From: Candidatus Hodarchaeota archaeon
GTDB taxonomy: Archaea > Asgardarchaeota > Lokiarchaeia > Sigyniarchaeales > SOKP01
Reading direction: 5' to 3'
NCBI GenBank assembly: GCA_048887225.1
Contig: JBHLJY010000005.1
Location: 96,001 to 160,000, forward strand
Length of the DNA stretch: 64,000 nucleotides
Shown: one piece after another, positions 8,632-18,750 of the stretch
Layout of the letters: each line of letters begins with the position of its first letter
Numbering within the stretch: position 1 is the first letter of the stretch
Made by a program: the position numbers and the translations under genes
The notes under the pieces: generated by a model
Databases searched by the model: none
Told to the model about the DNA's origin: nothing
Seen by the model: only the letters and a program-made list of their open reading frames with translations

Positions 8632-9183
8632 GTGCTTATCAATTTGGAAGTTAGAGATTTAATGAAAAAAGCAGTTAATTTCCATGGACATTCTTGTCCT
8701 GGCGTTGCAATCGGCGTTTTAGTATCTAAATACATACTAGAACATGATAATGAATTTAGTACTGATGAAGAGCTAGTTGCAGTCGTAGAAAATGATAATT
8801 GTAGCGTTGATGCTATTCAAGCAATATTAGGAACAACCTTTGGGAAGGGCAATTTAATATATCTAGATTATGGTAAAAATAATTATACTTTTTATAACAG
8901 AACAAATAAAAAAGCTATAAAAATATCTTTAAAAAGTAGGAATTTTGGAGATCTTCCTTCATCTAAAGAAGAGCGAACAGAAGGAATATTAAGAATCAAA
9001 CCTGAAGATATATTCAGGATCCAAAAAGTGAAATTTAATCCACCTGAAAAAGCTAAAATATATGAATCAATCATCTGTGATGAATGTGGTGATCCTACAA
9101 TGATCACTAGAATAAAAGAGTATAAAGGAAAAAACCTATGTATTCCTTGTTATAAAAGGATTAAAAAAAGTAGGATTATTTAA
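8632..9183 (+). CDS. FmdE family protein (formylmethanofuran dehydrogenase subunit E-like) with C-terminal Zn finger
   Basis: FHGHSCPG, ENDNCSVDAIQ, TFGKGNL, CDECG...LCIPC. Confidence 0.9.
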   Translation: MLINLEVRDLMKKAVNFHGHSCPGVAIGVLVSKYILEHDNEFSTDEELVAVVENDNCSVDAIQAILGTTFGKGNLIYLDYGKNNYTFYNRTNKKAIKISLKSRNFGDLPSSKEERTEGILRIKPEDIFRIQKVKFNPPEKAKIYESIICDECGDPTMITRIKEYKGKNLCIPCYKRIKKSRII

Positions 9184-9264: not shown

Positions 9265-10497
9265 ATGATTAAAACTATCGAAAAAGGACATACGCTGTTA
9301 GTAAAAGGGCCTACGAGGATAACTTTATTAGATGGAAAATTAGAAGTACTTGGAAAAACAATTCTTCCAGACAAAAGAAGTTCAAATTTGGATTTCTCAG
9401 AATTTGATGAAGATTACGTCATAATTATTCCTAGTGCTAATCATTACCCGTTATTTACGTTAGAAAAATCAAAACTAGAGATATATACATCTAACGAAAA
9501 AGAGAACCTTAAATTAATTAAGGAAAATTCGATATCTAACAGATGGATTGAAATTAAGAATGCCATTTTGGAAGAACTTAAAGAAAAAGAGGGAAAACCA
9601 TTAAAAATTATGGTTTTGGGAATAAGTAGTGGAAAAACAACAATAATTAAATATTTAGCTAATAGTTTCCTTAAAGAGGGATTTAAAGGAGGTTATCTTG
9701 ATTCTGATTTAGGACAACAGATAATGTATTTGCCAACTACTCTTAATATTGGAACAATTAAGGATTCGATTATTTCAGGCGAAGATATTGATTCAGAAAG
9801 CACAGTATTTATAGGAGCCACATTTCCAAAAGGAAATTATAAATTTATAGTGTCGCATTATTGTAAAAATTTAATTGGTGAGTATATAAGAAATCATATA
9901 GATACTAATTTTGTATTAATTGATACGGATGGCTGGATAAAGCAAGAAGCAGGTGTCATATATAAAAATTTTTTTATCGAAATGATAAATCCCGATATTT
10001 TAATCGTATTTCACGATGATACTATTAAAGAATTAAAAACTATTGTAAAAATCGCTAGGTTAAGAAAAGATAGAAAAATCTATTTAATTAAGGAAAATAA
10101 TAAATATTTTTACGAAAAGGATAAAGAAGAAAGAAGATTTTTGAGGCAAAGTCAATTTGCTAAGGTTTTAGAAGATTATAGAAAAATCTCTATTCCTTTG
10201 GAGGATATTAAATTTGTAAAGTCTGATTATAATACTGAGACTAACGAAATTCTTGAAAGAGAGATTGATGTTAGCGAATTAATTAAACTCCCTTATCACT
10301 ATGTAATAATTTCGTTGCTTGACAAGGATTCAAAATTGATAAAAATAGGACTACTCTTTGTTATAAATTTAGAAAAAAACTATATATTAATATTCTCTGA
10401 TTTATCTTATAAAGAGCAAATCAAAGTCAAAAAAATCTTACTGGGGAGTTTAAGGCTTAGTATAAAGGGAAATCATCAAGGTTATTTATATTTATAA
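9265..10497 (+). CDS. Clp1/Grc3-like polynucleotide 5'-OH kinase
   Basis: P-loop VLGISSGKTT, DSDLGQ, IDTDGW, lid RRFLRQ. Confidence 0.82.
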   Translation: MIKTIEKGHTLLVKGPTRITLLDGKLEVLGKTILPDKRSSNLDFSEFDEDYVIIIPSANHYPLFTLEKSKLEIYTSNEKENLKLIKENSISNRWIEIKNAILEELKEKEGKPLKIMVLGISSGKTTIIKYLANSFLKEGFKGGYLDSDLGQQIMYLPTTLNIGTIKDSIISGEDIDSESTVFIGATFPKGNYKFIVSHYCKNLIGEYIRNHIDTNFVLIDTDGWIKQEAGVIYKNFFIEMINPDILIVFHDDTIKELKTIVKIARLRKDRKIYLIKENNKYFYEKDKEERRFLRQSQFAKVLEDYRKISIPLEDIKFVKSDYNTETNEILEREIDVSELIKLPYHYVIISLLDKDSKLIKIGLLFVINLEKNYILIFSDLSYKEQIKVKKILLGSLRLSIKGNHQGYLYL

Positions 10498-10531: not shown

Positions 10532-11974
10532 ATGGATGATAATAAGCTCTCTAAATTCGTGAAGCTGATGTCTAAAGAAATATCAGACTCAGATTTAGAT
10601 TTAGTTAATTTAGGAAAAACCTTAGGATTAGATCTAGTACTATTTGCTGATTTAAGAGCGTCTCAAGAGGATAATTTTGCTGATGCTGTTAGGCAAAAAG
10701 CTTTGAGGAAGATGAAAAGAGATAAAGATAACTACTTAAGCAACAACGATTTATTCTATGCTGGCAGTGTTGATTTTATGGTGTGTGATGAGCCAGGAGG
10801 AAAGAAATTTTTTCTTTTGGAGACTAATGGTGGTTCAAATCGCGGGCTTTCTATCCTCACAAAAAAACAACAAACTATTATATATAATGGATATTTTGAA
10901 GCTATTTCTCAAGCTATTAAAAAGAATAAGCGAGGAGATAACAAAGTACTTATTCTTGTTGGAGTTCCGATAGATGATGGTTTAATTCACGAAAAAGTAA
11001 TATTGATTGATTATTTAAGAAAAGAAATAAGAAAAAGAGAGCTTTCGGTAGACATATTTAATGTTAACAATTTTAAAGAGGAATTTGATGTTGACGTTGC
11101 GTTTTTAATTGCTGATTACAAGCAGTTATCCACATCTTTATCCTTTTCAGAAAATTGGTTCAAATTTAAAGATGTTTCTAAAATTAGCGTTCTTATAGGA
11201 GATGGTATTGCGCGTCGGTTTCAAAATGATGTGTTTGCTCAATTAATAAGAAAAGATTTTCGAAAAATTCATACAATTATCGTTAATCCTATTTATCGAG
11301 TTACGGATGATAAATCGCTAACTTATTTAGCAAGTTATTTTGCTAAGGACATCCTTAAAAAGTATAATTTAAAATATCTTCTATTTACAAAAGCTTATAA
11401 TGAGAGTGAATTAATAGAAAAATTGGGATATATCATAAAAAAATATAAAAAACCTTTTATAATTAAGCCTGATGGCGGTTCTGGGGGAGCAGGAGTCCTT
11501 CCGATATCTCCAGATGAAGATCCGTCCAATATTAAAAATCTAATAGAGGAGAGTAAGAAAGAATTTTTTGCGAAATTTATGAAAAATCGAGATCCTTTTC
11601 CATATACAATCCAAGAAATGGCTGATTTTTCGTTAATAGACTGGAAAGGGGGCAAACATACGTTCGATTTAAGGATTTATATGTCTCAGATAAATGGAAA
11701 AATTATCCCAATTGGGGGATTAGCAAGAATAGCAAGAGGCAGTTATCATGGAACTTTAGAAAAACAAGAATTTGTTGTAAATCTATCTGGATTTGATGGA
11801 GTCATAGAAGTTGAACGTGGACAAGGAGTTTCCAAAAATAATAGTAAGCTCTTGAATTTATCCATGGATGATTTTGTAAATATTTTTTGTATTGGATGTG
11901 TAATGTTTGTAAGCATGGCCAAAAATTTTCAAAAAATTATTGAGTTCTCAGATTGGGGCCAAATTATTGGTTAG
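10532..11974 (+). CDS. Circularly permuted ATP-grasp amide/peptide ligase
   Basis: The metal-binding DFMV...LLETN segment lies at aa 81-99 (N-terminal), while IIKPDGGSGGAG (K312), YTIQE, FDLRIY (D379), GGLARIA and VVNLS lie C-terminal. Confidence 0.75.
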   Translation: MDDNKLSKFVKLMSKEISDSDLDLVNLGKTLGLDLVLFADLRASQEDNFADAVRQKALRKMKRDKDNYLSNNDLFYAGSVDFMVCDEPGGKKFFLLETNGGSNRGLSILTKKQQTIIYNGYFEAISQAIKKNKRGDNKVLILVGVPIDDGLIHEKVILIDYLRKEIRKRELSVDIFNVNNFKEEFDVDVAFLIADYKQLSTSLSFSENWFKFKDVSKISVLIGDGIARRFQNDVFAQLIRKDFRKIHTIIVNPIYRVTDDKSLTYLASYFAKDILKKYNLKYLLFTKAYNESELIEKLGYIIKKYKKPFIIKPDGGSGGAGVLPISPDEDPSNIKNLIEESKKEFFAKFMKNRDPFPYTIQEMADFSLIDWKGGKHTFDLRIYMSQINGKIIPIGGLARIARGSYHGTLEKQEFVVNLSGFDGVIEVERGQGVSKNNSKLLNLSMDDFVNIFCIGCVMFVSMAKNFQKIIEFSDWGQIIG

Positions 11975-11986
11975 AATTGAAAAATT

Positions 11987-13147
11987 ATGAAACTTGAAAC
12001 CTTAAAACACTTATTAAATATATCCAAAAGACGAGAGTTATTTGAAAAAATTTTAAATTTTTTAGAGTCCCTAAATAATTTAAATTATATAGTTTACGAG
12101 ATATTCAATATATCAGATGGAACTATCCCCATCATATATATTGGGAAGAATTTTGATGTTGATAAAGTTAAATATGTAAAAATCTTTGTTGGCGCTCAAC
12201 ATAATGAATATAATGGATTATTTGGTATTTTAGAATTTCTTAAAATGGTTCAAAATCAAAAAATCTCTGTAAATGAAATTTTGAAGGAAGACCAGATTTT
12301 AATTTTTTTTCCATTAATGAATCCTTACGGTTTCCTCAACCCTTCCATCCACAATAAATCTGGTTATTATTTAAAAGATGGGACGAATCTTAATAGATTC
12401 TGGCGTAGAACATTTGCTCCTGATTATAACAATTATAATGATGATCAAATTGAATATCCTATTCCAGAACATGCTAATATTGTGAAAAAAATACTTAAGA
12501 AATACTGGGAAAAAGAAGATATGCCCATTTATTTATTGGATTTTCATGAAACATCTCTTCTTGAAAGAATTCCAAAAGAATTGCGTAAAAACTTAATGAA
12601 AGAGTCTATCACCTATAAATTTGATCATTGGCTCAAAGAAGGTATTATACTAAATGTAATGGAGCTCTATCATATAAAATATTATGAAAAACCTCTATTT
12701 TTTAAATGCACCCCTTCTGCAAACCATAATCATATAAGCTTAAGTATTAAACAATTAGATACAGTTTTCGAAAAATTATTAGAATACATGACAACAAATA
12801 AGGACAAATTGCCTTTTTACTTTTGCCACAGCGAGAAAAGCAAGGATTATTGCGAGAATGTAGCAAAAAACGTTTATAATAAGTTAAAAGATAAACTTTG
12901 GGAAACTAAGTATGCTGCAGTAAAACATTTCCATGATCATGGATGTCTTGTAATGATGGGAGATGCTACATCCCGATCTAACGTATTTTCTATAGAACTA
13001 GAAAGTCAAAAGCAATTTTTTGATCTTTTTATTGAAATTGAAAAATCTCAAAACAACACAAATTATTTCGAAAAAAAATTAAAATCAATCAACTTAAGTA
13101 TTGAATTAGCTGTTGAATCGATTTTAACATTGATTAAAACATTTTGA
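11987..13147 (+). CDS. M14-family Zn carboxypeptidase / deacylase
   Basis: GAQHNE (variant of HxxE), PLMNPYG, NLNRFW, LDFHE, FSIEL. Confidence 0.75.
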   Translation: MKLETLKHLLNISKRRELFEKILNFLESLNNLNYIVYEIFNISDGTIPIIYIGKNFDVDKVKYVKIFVGAQHNEYNGLFGILEFLKMVQNQKISVNEILKEDQILIFFPLMNPYGFLNPSIHNKSGYYLKDGTNLNRFWRRTFAPDYNNYNDDQIEYPIPEHANIVKKILKKYWEKEDMPIYLLDFHETSLLERIPKELRKNLMKESITYKFDHWLKEGIILNVMELYHIKYYEKPLFFKCTPSANHNHISLSIKQLDTVFEKLLEYMTTNKDKLPFYFCHSEKSKDYCENVAKNVYNKLKDKLWETKYAAVKHFHDHGCLVMMGDATSRSNVFSIELESQKQFFDLFIEIEKSQNNTNYFEKKLKSINLSIELAVESILTLIKTF

Positions 13148-14131
13148 TTATTCATTAAAAAATCTAAGAGTGGCTCCAACTAAGACTAATTCATTCTTTT
13201 TTTGCATATGCCCTCCTTTTGATAGAATTACTCGATTTTTATCGGAAGACTCTAAAATTATATAATTTTCTTTAAAATTTTTGAACGGAATTATCTTATC
13301 GTTTCTGGTGTGTATTAACAAAACTTTTTCTGAGAATCGTTTCCATTCAACTTCAGAGAGAGAGTTTCTTATATCTTTAATTACGATTGATGGAGATAAC
13401 TTCCGATTTTCTACATCATCAGGAGATAAATTAATACCTTTTATAAAATAGCTTAATTTAACTATTAGATTCGATTCTAATATATTTTTTTTATAATCTG
13501 ACATTGAAGAAATAGCAATTATTTTCTCAACATTTTTATTTGGAAAACCTCCGCATAACACAGTTAAGGCTCCAATACTTAAACCAACCGAATAAATCTT
13601 CATTTGGCTAAACTTATCGCTAGATTTTAACCACTCGATTATTCTAATATAATCATCTATTCGCTTTAAAAAATCGCTTCGATTACCTGCTTTTTTAGAT
13701 TCTCCAATCCCTCTCGCATCGTAAGCTAAAATTATATAACCATTATATGCTAAAGGAAAATAATAATATTGGAGGCTTTCTTTTCTGTCAGAAAAGCCAG
13801 GGCTAATAATTACTACAGCATTTTTTTTGTTTCTAGCCTTTTGATTTTTCGATTTTATTAAATCAGCATATAAATCTCCACCCTCAACTTTAATTTTTAC
13901 TTTTGAAATCTCGAGCTCTTTTAAATATAAATTTTCCCATCTATCAAAATATATATCTCTCCAACTAAAATAAATTTGAAAAGGTGTAAAAATGATTAAA
14001 AAAGTTGTAGTAGATAAAATTAAACAAGTCCAAAAAGTATTTCCCCAGGAAGCATTTATATGCCAAATAAACGCACTAATTAAAACATCAATGGCAATTA
14101 AAATGAAATACTTTTTAATTTTAGTTAGCAT
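13148..14131 (-). CDS. Membrane-anchored alpha/beta-hydrolase
   Basis: Two N-terminal hydrophobic segments, PGFS, YDARGIGES, nucleophile GLSIG, NDKIIP, GGH. Start moved to the ATG at 14131 because the track start (14263) overlaps the upstream gene. Confidence 0.82.
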   Translation of the reverse strand: MLTKIKKYFILIAIDVLISAFIWHINASWGNTFWTCLILSTTTFLIIFTPFQIYFSWRDIYFDRWENLYLKELEISKVKIKVEGGDLYADLIKSKNQKARNKKNAVVIISPGFSDRKESLQYYYFPLAYNGYIILAYDARGIGESKKAGNRSDFLKRIDDYIRIIEWLKSSDKFSQMKIYSVGLSIGALTVLCGGFPNKNVEKIIAISSMSDYKKNILESNLIVKLSYFIKGINLSPDDVENRKLSPSIVIKDIRNSLSEVEWKRFSEKVLLIHTRNDKIIPFKNFKENYIILESSDKNRVILSKGGHMQKKNELVLVGATLRFFNE

Positions 14132-14141
14132 GCGAAATAAG

Positions 14142-14516
14142 TTATTTTTTCTTACTTTTTCCCGACCTTTTTCTTTCTGCTTCGGTCCAGGGCTTCTTTT
14201 TTGATTCTTTTCCAGGCGGACACCCAAAATCATCTCTAACTTTACATTCTGGCTTACTATCACTGCCTGGACAAGGTTCGCACTTAATTTTTCTCATCAT
14301 TTTTTCGACTTCATTAACTTCATAGCCAAATTCTTCATCTTCAGTCTCATCGACTAACATCTCATCTTCTATTTCACTAAGGTCGTAGATTAAATCTTCA
14401 GTTAAGTCATCTTTTTCATCGTATAAATCTAAAATTTCATCTCCATCTTCATCAATTTTACCTGAGGGGATTTCATCATTTTCTCTCTCTGCCAGTAGTT
14501 TCTTCTTTTTAGCCAT
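14142..14516 (-). CDS. Small highly acidic protein with a 4-Cys cluster and basic termini
   Basis: 29 D/E in a 60-aa stretch, then CEPC..C..C; 10 nt upstream of the hydrolase start. Confidence 0.7.
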   Translation of the reverse strand: MAKKKKLLAERENDEIPSGKIDEDGDEILDLYDEKDDLTEDLIYDLSEIEDEMLVDETEDEEFGYEVNEVEKMMRKIKCEPCPGSDSKPECKVRDDFGCPPGKESKKKPWTEAERKRSGKSKKK

Positions 14517-15663: not shown

Positions 15664-17721
15664 TTACAAATAAGAAGTAGAAAATTTTATTATATTCTCT
15701 ATTTCTATTTGGATTTTTTTATTTGCTTTTATTTTATTATATATATTTGTAATTTGGAGTAGTACTGATTTTAATTTTTCAAAAGGAAAGATTTTAAAAT
15801 TTGCCAAATTAAAACGAGGTGTTAAATATTTAATTTGAATATTAGGAAAATAGACTTCTGAATATAAAATATTAGATAAAATATTATAAGATTTATTCGA
15901 TTTCTCGTAGTTTTCTTCAAAGTATAATAAAAAAACTAACGAATTTGCTAATTTTTTAAAGAATTCTAAATGTATTTTAATATTTTTGATATCTATTTCT
16001 TTAAAAATCTTTAATTCTGATTTAATCATTTCATATTTCAATTGGGAAAGAAATTGAATAATTTTTCCTATATGATATAAAGAAACGGGAAGCTGGTTAG
16101 GCATTGGCAACCTTTTAATGAAACTTCCATTGAATCTTAAATAACCTCCTGACATATGTAAAGTGCTAAAAAGGCTTTTAAAAACTGTGTCTATCAATTT
16201 GGAATTTAAGATCGTCATAAGACAAATTAGTTTATTTATATCGATTGAGGGAATTCTAATGAAGTATAGTCCAGTGATGTTCGTCAAAACACCAAGATCA
16301 AATACACATGTCAAGTCCTTAGCGATTTCTCTAAATATTATTTTTTCACTGCTGAGGTCATCCCAAATGTCTTTAAAAGCGGGTTTATAATTGAAATATG
16401 AAACTTTTATATCTTTTTTAGCTATTTTTATTCGTTTTTTATATTTTAAATGATATTTTCCTACATTTCCAGTTCCAATTAGAAGTAGATCTTTTTTAGA
16501 TTTTCTTTTTTCACTAATATTATCAAAAAATTTACTGTATTTCAAAAACCCAAATGGTCGATAAATAATTTTTAAATCATTAAACGTCTCTGAAATTGTT
16601 TTAAATTTAGAATAGAGGTGACTAATTAATTCAATATTACCTGAAATTGGAATTACATTAGATGGAAGTTGATTAATTAATTTCTGAGAAAAAATAAAGA
16701 ATTCTGAAACATTAGATTTAATGATTTCCCCGATATCACTATAAGTTTTTATGATTATTTCATTAGAACCACTAGGAAATCTGTTTTTAAGAGAGAGGAT
16801 TACTGGATATGTTGCTGTTTTGTGAAAAACGGGTAATGAGGAAATATTGATAATCTCTCTAAGTTCTGTTTTATTTATTAATAAATCTCTTATTTTAATA
16901 CCGTAATCCGAAGATAAAAATTTATTAGGTAAAATAAATGAAATGTATCCTGTATTTTTTTTTAATATTTGTAAAGATTTTTCAATAAATAAAATCGAAA
17001 TGTCAAATAACCGATAAGCTGAGTAGAACTTATTGTATAATTGTTTTTTATATATTTTATTTTTTAATTTCTTATTTTCAATATAGGGGGGATTTCCAAT
17101 TATAAAATCAAAATAATTATCTTTATCAAATTCTAAAAGATAATCCAAATTATAAACATTAAGTTTGATATTGATGTGTTGAAAAATTTTCCCAATATCA
17201 TTTTTATTTAGGTTTTTTAAATCAGTTTCTATAGTATTTTGATATAATGTTTGATCTGATTGATCTGAATATATCCAATTCAGTAACTTTAATTTTGAGA
17301 TATAACATGAAGATTTATCAATGTCTATTCCATAAATATTATTTTGAATAATTTTCTTTTTTAAATCAAATTCTTTCAAACTTGGATTAATTTTCTTCCT
17401 TAAATTGAATAATAATTTTGCTACAGAAATTAAAAATCTTCCAGAACCACAAGAAGGATCTAAAACTTTAATATTTTCAATCTTCTTATTTATGATTTCC
17501 TTTAATTCGTCATTTCTAACTAAAAATTGAATTAAATTATGGATATCCAATTCTTTCGTAAAATACCCATATAATTGGAGTAAATCTTTGATGCAAATTT
17601 TAAATATACTTTTTACAATAAAATCAGCAATTTCATTTGGTGTATATATAACACCAAAATTTTTTTGATTTTTAAAGCTTTGATTCTCGAAATTATCTAT
17701 TAACTCATTTAAAAATTCCAT
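15664..17721 (-). CDS. N6-adenine DNA methyltransferase (TaqI/Eco57I-like) with no adjacent nuclease
   Basis: YTPNEIA, DPSCGSGRFL (motif I), GIDID, IGNPPY (motif IV), TaqI-C-like target-recognition region. Confidence 0.88.
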   Translation of the reverse strand: MEFLNELIDNFENQSFKNQKNFGVIYTPNEIADFIVKSIFKICIKDLLQLYGYFTKELDIHNLIQFLVRNDELKEIINKKIENIKVLDPSCGSGRFLISVAKLLFNLRKKINPSLKEFDLKKKIIQNNIYGIDIDKSSCYISKLKLLNWIYSDQSDQTLYQNTIETDLKNLNKNDIGKIFQHINIKLNVYNLDYLLEFDKDNYFDFIIGNPPYIENKKLKNKIYKKQLYNKFYSAYRLFDISILFIEKSLQILKKNTGYISFILPNKFLSSDYGIKIRDLLINKTELREIINISSLPVFHKTATYPVILSLKNRFPSGSNEIIIKTYSDIGEIIKSNVSEFFIFSQKLINQLPSNVIPISGNIELISHLYSKFKTISETFNDLKIIYRPFGFLKYSKFFDNISEKRKSKKDLLLIGTGNVGKYHLKYKKRIKIAKKDIKVSYFNYKPAFKDIWDDLSSEKIIFREIAKDLTCVFDLGVLTNITGLYFIRIPSIDINKLICLMTILNSKLIDTVFKSLFSTLHMSGGYLRFNGSFIKRLPMPNQLPVSLYHIGKIIQFLSQLKYEMIKSELKIFKEIDIKNIKIHLEFFKKLANSLVFLLYFEENYEKSNKSYNILSNILYSEVYFPNIQIKYLTPRFNLANFKIFPFEKLKSVLLQITNIYNKIKANKKIQIEIENIIKFSTSYL

Positions 17722-17844: not shown

Positions 17845-18750
17845 TTGATTGATAATACTTTTTTACAAAAATTAATTAAAACGCCAGAATCTATCACTAA
17901 ACTTGATTTTGATACAATTTCAGAAATTTTGAAACAAGCCAGAGATATTTTTAAAGATGAACCTCTATTATTGGAATTTGATTTAGACAATTCGGAGGAA
18001 GTTTTTGTTCTTGGTGATATCCATGGTAATATGCGTACATTAATGAAAATTATAGATATAATTAATCAACAAAAACCTAAATTGGTAATATCGTTAGGGG
18101 ATATAGTTGATAGGGGAACGAATCAATTGGAATGTTTAATTGTAGTTTTAGCTTTAAAAATTCTTAAACATGATAGTTTTTACATATTAAGAGGAAATCA
18201 CGAGACCTTAGAGATGAACCAAGCATATGGATTTTTTTATGATTTCCTCCAGAGATTTAAGGATTATAATAAATTTAGCGAAATTTTAGCAGTTTATGAT
18301 ATGCTTCCTATGTGCGCGATCATCAATAATTTAATTTTATGTTTACATGGAGGAATTCCTGAAGACATAGATATCTTAAATAAATTAAAAGGATTAAGAC
18401 ATAACAATATTGATAATTCTACTTTAAAGACGATTAATGAAGGTATTTTCCAAATTTTATGGAATGATCCAAAACAATCTGGATTGCGGGGTTTTGAGGG
18501 AAGTTTTAGAGGGTCTGGAATTAAATTTTTTGGCGAGGACGTTTTCGATAATTTCATGGAGTCAAATAATCTTAAATACCTTATTCGAGCCCATGAATGC
18601 TTTCCCGAGGGTTATAAATGGTTTTTCAACGGACGATTACTTTCAATATTTTCCGCAGCAAACTATCGTGGAGATTTTTCACCGAATCCTGCTTCTTATG
18701 CAATTATAAAAAATAATAGAATTATCCCTAAAACGCTAGAACTTCTATAA
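17845..18750 (+). CDS. PPP-family Ser/Thr protein phosphatase
   Basis: GDIHG, GDIVDRG, LRGNHE, HGGI, LWNDP, IRAHE, FSAANY. Confidence 0.93.
   Translation: MIDNTFLQKLIKTPESITKLDFDTISEILKQARDIFKDEPLLLEFDLDNSEEVFVLGDIHGNMRTLMKIIDIINQQKPKLVISLGDIVDRGTNQLECLIVVLALKILKHDSFYILRGNHETLEMNQAYGFFYDFLQRFKDYNKFSEILAVYDMLPMCAIINNLILCLHGGIPEDIDILNKLKGLRHNNIDNSTLKTINEGIFQILWNDPKQSGLRGFEGSFRGSGIKFFGEDVFDNFMESNNLKYLIRAHECFPEGYKWFFNGRLLSIFSAANYRGDFSPNPASYAIIKNNRIIPKTLELL

Follow-up and report, generated by a model that had tools for sequence, protein, structure and literature searches.

What do two adjacent archaeal genes, one for an ATP-grasp ligase and one for a carboxypeptidase-like hydrolase, do together? 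The question arises from a window of 64,000 nucleotides, the whole stretch of DNA analysed here, from a Candidatus Hodarchaeota archaeon (assembly GCA_048887225.1, contig JBHLJY010000005.1, positions 96,001 to 160,000). Its forward strand carries the genes for a circularly permuted ATP-grasp carboxylate-amine ligase of a family without a name (P0001, positions 10532 to 11974, 480 aa) and for a probably cytosolic, predicted M14-clan zinc hydrolase (P0002, positions 11987 to 13147, 386 aa), which seems to be distantly related to the AstE/AspA-type hydrolases that accompany related ligases. An initial annotation had described two co-oriented genes 12 nt apart and had likened their products to the ‘tubulin code’ enzymes of eukaryotes, that is, to the TTL/TTLL ligases and the CCP/AGBL carboxypeptidases. 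Both open reading frames (ORFs), their common orientation and the 12-nt gap were confirmed, and the motifs quoted for the two proteins all lie at the residues given for them. Our analysis supports a functionally coupled ligase/hydrolase (‘writer/eraser’) pair, in which P0001 probably forms an amide bond that P0002 cleaves again. The coupling in the initial proposal thus stands on linkage, on the dependence of the hydrolase on the ligase and on divergent gene contexts, whereas the TTLL/CCP kinship does not.

Since P0001 has 468 and P0002 has 227 homologues at E ≤ 1e-3, both are conserved genes and not chance ORFs. All homologues with a named source come from Promethearchaeota-type metagenome-assembled genomes (MAGs), and all are labelled ‘hypothetical’. 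MAGs placed in one family by the genome collection bear the GenBank names Thor-, Hod-, Odin- and Hermodarchaeota as well as Promethearchaeota. As the MAGs of a single family are named after different Asgard phyla, GenBank source names are an unreliable guide to the range of the ligase's family.

Circular permutation and placement of the ligase

The ligase contains the motif series GSVDFMV...FFLLETN (D81/E97/N99), IIKPDGGSGGAG (K312), YTIQE, FDLRIY (D379/R381), GGLARIA and VVNLS. The first of these belongs to an N-terminal beta-hairpin (G78 to S102, positions 10763 to 10837, forward strand as for all features of the pair), which is modelled as strands 78–87 and 90–100 and would supply the Mg ligands D81, E97 and N99. 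Conservation and an alignment with the K/Gly loop of PurD mark FIIKPDGGSGGAG (positions 11456 to 11494) as the predicted ATP-binding Lys312 with its Gly-rich loop, and conservation likewise marks FDLRIY (positions 11663 to 11680) as the candidate catalytic strand with D379 and R381, and GGLARIA...VVNLSG (positions 11714 to 11791) as the region of R399 and N417. Across 34 members of the family with 17–68% identity, the hairpin residues are conserved (D81 33/34, E97 33/34, N99 31/34, G100 34/34), as are the ATP loop (K312 33/34, P313 and G321 34/34 each), the catalytic strand (D/E379 and R381, 33/34 each), R/K399 (33/34) and N417 (29/34). Conservation extends to E154, D224, N252, K261, Y265 and S341, which are candidate substrate residues. 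By these residues P0001 looks like an active enzyme.

The permutation itself, which the initial annotation had deduced from motif order, is real, as three lines of evidence agree. First, the D...ExN hairpin comes before the K/Gly-loop. Second, permuted ATP-grasp structures align with the P0001 model (built from a 41-sequence alignment; pLDDT 88, pTM 0.90) from about residue 18–58 onwards, whereas classical ATP-grasp structures align only with residues about 137–464 and their alignments end short of the target chain's end, for example at residue 266 of 314 in E. coli GshB; the Mg-binding E-x-N strands of classical ATP-grasps lie just past these points. Third, the hairpin residues are conserved across a wide family. 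Alignment coverage and conservation together suggest that D81, E97 and N99 share one ATP/Mg site with K312, D379 and R381.

To which ligases, then, is P0001 related? No Pfam or NCBIfam family is assigned above threshold, and sub-threshold matches to YheCD, GSH-S and ATPgrasp_ST fall over residues 270–400. Membership of YheC/D, to which the initial annotation had likened the ligase, was not borne out: PF14398 reaches 19.2 bits against a gathering cutoff of 26.8 and covers residues 281–402 only, although some P0001 homologues carry a precomputed PF14398 label. There is no P0001 match to PF03917, PF08886, PF04174, PF14403, PF03738 or TTL (PF03133) at E ≤ 1, and no PF08886 match anywhere on the genome at E ≤ 10. 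Searching PDB sequences with P0001, singly and as a profile, returned just the PurD K-loop match and chance matches. Structure is more informative. The best Foldseek matches of the model in the PDB are eukaryotic glutathione synthetases (1e-11 to 1e-9), followed by 3k1t, 3n6x, Cp1B, YjfC/YgiC, GspS and trypanothione synthetase. The top 50 include neither TTL nor TTLL. Classical ATP-grasps score below this permuted clade (ArgX 11.0, Ddl 10.6, LysX 10.0, TTLL11 9.7, GshB 9.2, RimK 8.8, TTL 8.8, TTLL6 8.6, TTLL7 7.4). In the ESM Atlas, the structural neighbours are a Bacteroidota cluster without a name (TM 0.69), PF08886 GshA (0.58), eukaryotic GSS (0.53) and CP_ATPgrasp_1/2 (0.52). TTL and TTLL enzymes are non-permuted, have a C-terminal E-x-N and align with the generic core of P0001 only (residues 137–470). 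By its modelled fold, P0001 therefore falls within the permuted GSS/PF08886/CP_ATPgrasp/GspS clade, where it represents a new family and none of the named ones.

An exhaustive profile search of 1.84 billion representative proteins found only 94 clusters of this ligase at E ≤ 1e-3. Among ten clusters scanned, no Pfam family exceeded its threshold, with one exception: the distant relative P0322 (674 aa) is a fusion that carries a GPP34 (Golgi phosphoprotein 3-like) domain at its N-terminus.

Given that glutathione synthetases and PF08886 ‘GshA’ are the top structural neighbours, P0001 might simply synthesise glutathione or gamma-glutamylcysteine and have no connection with the peptidase next door, an outcome that the initial annotation had set against its own proposal. 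We regard this as very improbable: the identity to these neighbours is just 10–13%, neither GSH_synth_ATP nor GshA of Pfam matches P0001, and the distribution of the peptidase is strictly tied to that of the ligase. Moreover, the 98%-complete genome has no GCS2 (PF04107) or Glu_cys_ligase (PF04262) gene to supply gamma-Glu-Cys, so that, with no known gamma-glutamylcysteine ligase, a plain glutathione pathway is unlikely.

A divergent M14-clan hydrolase

The second gene had been annotated as an M14 carboxypeptidase with a first zinc motif one residue short; its place in the M14 clan and the short motif are both upheld. Its model (pLDDT 88.7) has the M14 fold of a carboxypeptidase alpha/beta protein, and the motifs QHNE, NPYG, NLNR, DFHE and SIEL are all present. 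Among 44 sequences, the first zinc motif QHNE (Q71 to E74, positions 12197 to 12208) retains Q71, N73 and E74 in all 44 and H72 in 43, and so reads H72-N73-E74, a predicted zinc motif of the form H-x-E in place of H-x-x-E. NLNR, DFHE and SIELE are invariant and stand in the canonical M14 order. NLNR (N134 to R137, positions 12386 to 12397, 44/44) would correspond to the M14 substrate-carboxylate N-R motif and aligns with DLNR of P0338; DFHE (D185 to E188, positions 12539 to 12550; D185, H187 and E188 44/44, F186 43/44) would provide the third zinc ligand, H187; and SIELE (S335 to E339, positions 12989 to 13003; E337 and E339 44/44) the general-base Glu, either E337 or E339. The last two assignments follow motif order.

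The short zinc motif has a plausible history. A homologue from the divergent family f3, at 28% identity to P0002, retains AQHNEFNG together with INLNRFW and LDFHETSL. In a profile comparison, P0002 matches the AstE/AspA-type partner of a remote ligase relative (probability 83.5%, E 8e-6), and VGAQH-NEYNG of P0002 aligns with VGGQHGNEWNG across a one-column gap. Being invariant, kept at 28% identity and gap-aligned to QHGNE, the motif is a family trait that arises from HxxE by loss of one residue. P0002 itself has probably diverged from an AstE/AspA-like partner of this kind. P0002 differs from the AstE/AspA family (succinylglutamate desuccinylase, aspartoacylase, DoeB, CphZ) by this deletion and by long helical inserts, and lacks the C-terminal barrel domain. 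It has no Pfam match at E ≤ 1 and none to PF24827; PF00246 is found nowhere on the genome at E ≤ 1, and PDB sequence searches with P0002, as a single sequence and as a profile, gave nothing significant.

Kinship with the CCP/AGBL carboxypeptidases, by contrast, fails: structure comparison places P0002 no nearer to CCPs than to CPA, CPB and CPD, and the N-terminal beta-sandwich domain of CCP/AGBL is absent. Together with the fold ranking, the alignment coverage and the lack of Pfam matches on the ligase side, this led us to reject a TTL/TTLL and CCP relationship; the analogy holds in logic only. Since neither P0001 nor P0002 has a hydrophobic leader in its sequence, both are probably cytosolic.

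Five residues of P0002 outside the canonical M14 motifs are also invariant, namely H247, H249, H314, H318 and C320 (residues 236–249 and 314–320, positions 12692 to 12733 and 12926 to 12946). H247 and H249 fall in the sole low-confidence loop of the model (235–248), and the five residues may be part of a further metal site or of a lid over the substrate.

Linkage, dependence and repeated loss

The ligase occurs in 127 of 400 genomes of the phylum. It is present in 121/134 genomes of the window's family and in 2/14 and 1/2 of two families close to it, and is practically absent elsewhere. The hydrolase is found in 86/134 genomes of the window's family and in 2/14 of a neighbouring one. It always lies directly downstream of the ligase, and none of the 400 genomes has it without the ligase. 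In 55 of 80 ligase loci fetched it follows the ligase by 5–65 nt in the same orientation, while in about 22/80 there is room but no hydrolase, and the ligase abuts the next gene. Decayed hydrolase remnants with stop codons persist in four genomes. A likelihood tree of the ligases implies at least seven independent losses of the hydrolase with the ligase retained, and the outgroup and basal lineages possess it. The pair is also retained in the divergent family f3, at 41% identity for the ligase and 28% for the hydrolase. Conservation of the pair across Asgard genomes, which the initial annotation had asked about, is thus seen in these 55 loci and in f3; most lineages lack the pair, which excludes a broadly conserved cytoskeletal role for it. 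A search for ‘Rosetta stone’ fusions of more than 866 aa found none, which is weak evidence.

Adjacency needs careful reading, because in the window's family the ligase sits in a syntenic block of chorismate synthase, oxidoreductase, Mut7-C RNase, FmdE, Clp1, ligase, [hydrolase], alpha/beta hydrolase, methyltransferase and phosphatase. Given this block, ligase adjacency inside its own family is weak evidence. The Clp1-type P-loop polynucleotide kinase (positions 9265 to 10497, forward strand; PF16575, 1e-25) ends 34 nt upstream of the ligase and adjoins it in 74/80 same-family loci but not in the divergent families. The protein with an FmdE domain and a C4 zinc finger (positions 8632 to 9183, forward strand; PF02663, 2e-33) is encoded two genes upstream of the ligase, as the initial annotation had noted. 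Neither link is independent functional evidence, as the whole block is syntenic inside one family. We also considered exceptional conservation of the ligase and rejected it: its median identity of 66% is ordinary for its block and matches the neighbouring housekeeping genes.

The FmdE gene had suggested polyglutamylation of a cofactor to the initial annotation. In such a system the ligase would add glutamyl residues to methanofuran, H4MPT or F420, and the hydrolase would trim the tail. The methanogen ATP-grasps MfnD, MptN and CofF do add glutamyl residues to cofactor tails, and the position of FmdE is as described. Against this, the FmdE link exists solely within the family-wide block and is missing in divergent ligase contexts, the cofactor ligases that are known belong to the RimK type and are not permuted, and most genomes of the phylum lack the ligase family, which has disappeared even from some complete genomes of the window's family, such as the single-contig G188. 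We therefore hold a role in cofactor tailing to be very unlikely.

Divergent gene contexts and an RtcB-like neighbour

Stronger evidence for coupling comes from divergent contexts, in which the neighbours are rearranged. The f3 locus (L081) has the order X400, pyruvoyl arginine decarboxylase, deoxyhypusine synthase, ligase and M14-like hydrolase, where X400 denotes a family of about 400 aa with invariant PN-CG, NHF, HGS, HQ and PHGGGY motifs. The f7 locus (L083) reads metallophosphoesterase, HD, X400 and ligase, with a convergent M20 peptidase. Metagenomic contig L086 has AstE-like, ligase and X400; L091 and L092 have X400, ligase and AstE-like; and the P0253 contig repeats the latter order with an upstream 408-aa gene that has no Pfam match and that we presume to be X400. 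Both partners are missing beside two other ligase relatives (L087 and L090). The AstE-type partner of the remote relatives is homologous to P0002, so that a ligase and an M14-clan hydrolase have been kept side by side through shuffled gene orders, as expected of a functional pair. The coupling accordingly rests on four observations: the hydrolase is always downstream, it never occurs without the ligase, the linkage persists in a divergent family, and AstE/AspA-type neighbours recur in shuffled orders. The pyruvoyl-dependent arginine decarboxylase and deoxyhypusine synthase genes of the f3 locus (L081:2268-3842), inserted between X400 and the pair in one genome only, point to a possible polyamine or hypusine link.

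Could X400 reveal the substrate? Copies occur at L081:1013-2230, L083:10098-11306, L086:2221-3420, L091:1687-2817 and, in the window's own genome, L085:8319-9560 (G000 contig C9:69333-70556). Pfam and PDB sequence searches returned no match to X400, and its sole family signals are to RtcB (25/30 ESM Atlas feature hits; NCBIfam RtcB at E about 0.02); since it has no Pfam or PDB-sequence match, its RtcB likeness rests on weak signals. It has been conceivable to us that the ligase works with this RtcB-like enzyme (and, in the window's family, beside a Clp1-type kinase) on a substrate that is linked to RNA or bears a phosphate, with the hydrolase reversing the reaction. X400 does stand beside the ligase in five independent contexts with different gene orders, the metallophosphoesterase-HD-X400-ligase run (G128) fits such a role, and a Clp1-type kinase and a Mut7-C RNase lie upstream in the window. 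However, X400 occurs in many more genomes than the ligase does (212/400 against 127/400) and is unlinked to it in this genome, where it lies on contig C9; its assignment to RtcB is weak, Clp1 adjacency is limited to one family with wholesale synteny, and the ligase retains the standard carboxylate-amine residues. An RNA-end system is, in our judgement, decidedly unlikely. The same low likelihood attaches to a broader proposal, in which ligase, M14/AstE-type hydrolase and RtcB-like X400 make up a three-part system that reversibly attaches an amino acid to a macromolecular end, which could be the tail of a protein or a carboxylate linked to RNA or to a nucleotide. If true, archaea would possess a tagging system that has its own eraser, and the window's family would retain the writer and the eraser as its core, beside a Clp1-type RNA kinase.

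Proposed reaction and nature of the product

From the folds, the permutation, the conservation, the linkage and the pattern of losses we infer the chemistry, the directions of the two reactions and the class of substrate. ATP would be bound with K312 and the Gly-rich loop on one side and, on the other, the Mg ligands that the N-terminal hairpin provides (D81, E97 and N99). The substrate carboxylate would be phosphorylated to an acyl-phosphate, which the alpha-amino group of an amino acid would attack, with R381 stabilising the intermediate. P0002, as a predicted zinc amidohydrolase that would require a free C-terminal carboxylate (NLNR motif), could then cleave the same amide and free the C-terminal amino acid, so that the product is recycled or limited. 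In this scheme the hydrolase would be accessory, depending on the product of the ligase, while the ligase would be independent of the hydrolase.

AstE/AspA enzymes and CphZ, to which the P0002 model has structural matches, take N-acyl amino acids or dipeptides as substrates. The substrate of the pair is most likely small as well, perhaps a short peptide or an amino acid bearing an N-acyl or gamma-glutamyl group, and not a protein tail. The characterised members of the nearest clade are all small-molecule ligases, namely glutathione/homoglutathione synthetase, GspS, YgiC/YjfC and Cp1B, whose products are glutathione, homoglutathione, glutathionylspermidine, peptide-spermidine conjugates (YgiC/YjfC) and epoxysuccinyl-amino acids (Cp1B) (PMC12568646). 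A small-molecule product is favoured because these clade members make small molecules and AstE/AspA-type enzymes act on small substrates. Taken as a whole, the statement that an active permuted ligase and an M14-clan hydrolase acting on the same amide serve a small-molecule product has, in our estimation, an even chance of being right.

The initial annotation preferred a protein tail or other carboxylate to which amino acids, probably Glu, are added and from which they are removed. On a protein or peptide, the ligase would add Glu or another residue to a C-terminal or side-chain carboxylate and the M14 enzyme would trim it. Such a pair would parallel TTLL/CCP, RimK or LysX/LysK in function, without being a TTLL/CCP homologue, as the core-only match of TTL/TTLL, their rank under the permuted clade and the missing Pfam TTL match testify. 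With gaps of 12 and 34 nt, the locus has no small carrier-protein gene, the characterised relatives all act on small molecules, and most Asgard lineages lack the pair. We consider a protein-tail function unlikely, and prefer the small-molecule product.

Comparison with known systems

An ATP-grasp amidoligase combined with a peptidase is a known way to make and remove peptide tags and small peptides, so the design is already known, while both families are new to Pfam and NCBIfam. The closest named families, PF08886 ‘GshA’ (3k1t, Methylobacillus flagellatus) and CP_ATPgrasp_1/2 (3n6x), share about 12% identity with P0001, and their Pfam models miss it. Iyer et al. are said to have linked CP_ATPgrasp in 2009 to alpha-E and transglutaminase-like proteins, whereas the partners of the P0001 family are M14/AstE and RtcB-like proteins. 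Eukaryotic GSS/hGSS, GspS/trypanothione synthetase, E. coli YgiC/YjfC and fungal Cp1B have no detectable sequence similarity to P0001 and, unlike P0001, no dedicated M14-clan hydrolase gene next door. In the literature we found no paper on the ligase/hydrolase pair or on the ligase-hydrolase-X400 triad.

The pair thus adds two families beyond Pfam and NCBIfam, a rare permuted ligase and an M14-clan hydrolase with a zinc-motif deletion. The hydrolase depends strictly on the ligase and has been lost many times over, and an RtcB-like neighbour keeps recurring; these features offer a clear and testable handle on a metabolite or modification in Loki-type Asgard archaea, and the tempting claim that relatives of the tubulin-code enzymes exist in Asgard archaea is removed as unsupported.

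Neighbouring genes

Downstream of the pair, the reverse strand encodes an S33/S15-like alpha/beta hydrolase (positions 13148 to 14263) with an N-terminal hydrophobic segment, whose stop abuts that of the M14 gene. It is present in 75/80 loci and is the direct neighbour of the ligase wherever the M14 gene has been lost. An Eco57I/MmeI-type N6 DNA methyltransferase of 685 aa follows (positions 15664 to 17721, reverse strand) and is syntenic in 61/80 family loci, which is unusual for a restriction-modification-like gene. The same syntenic block includes a calcineurin-like phosphoesterase (positions 17845 to 18750, forward strand). It weakly resembles the STPPase_N domain, which belongs to PPP Ser/Thr phosphatases of the eukaryotic type, but stays below threshold (18.7 bits against a cutoff of 26.8).

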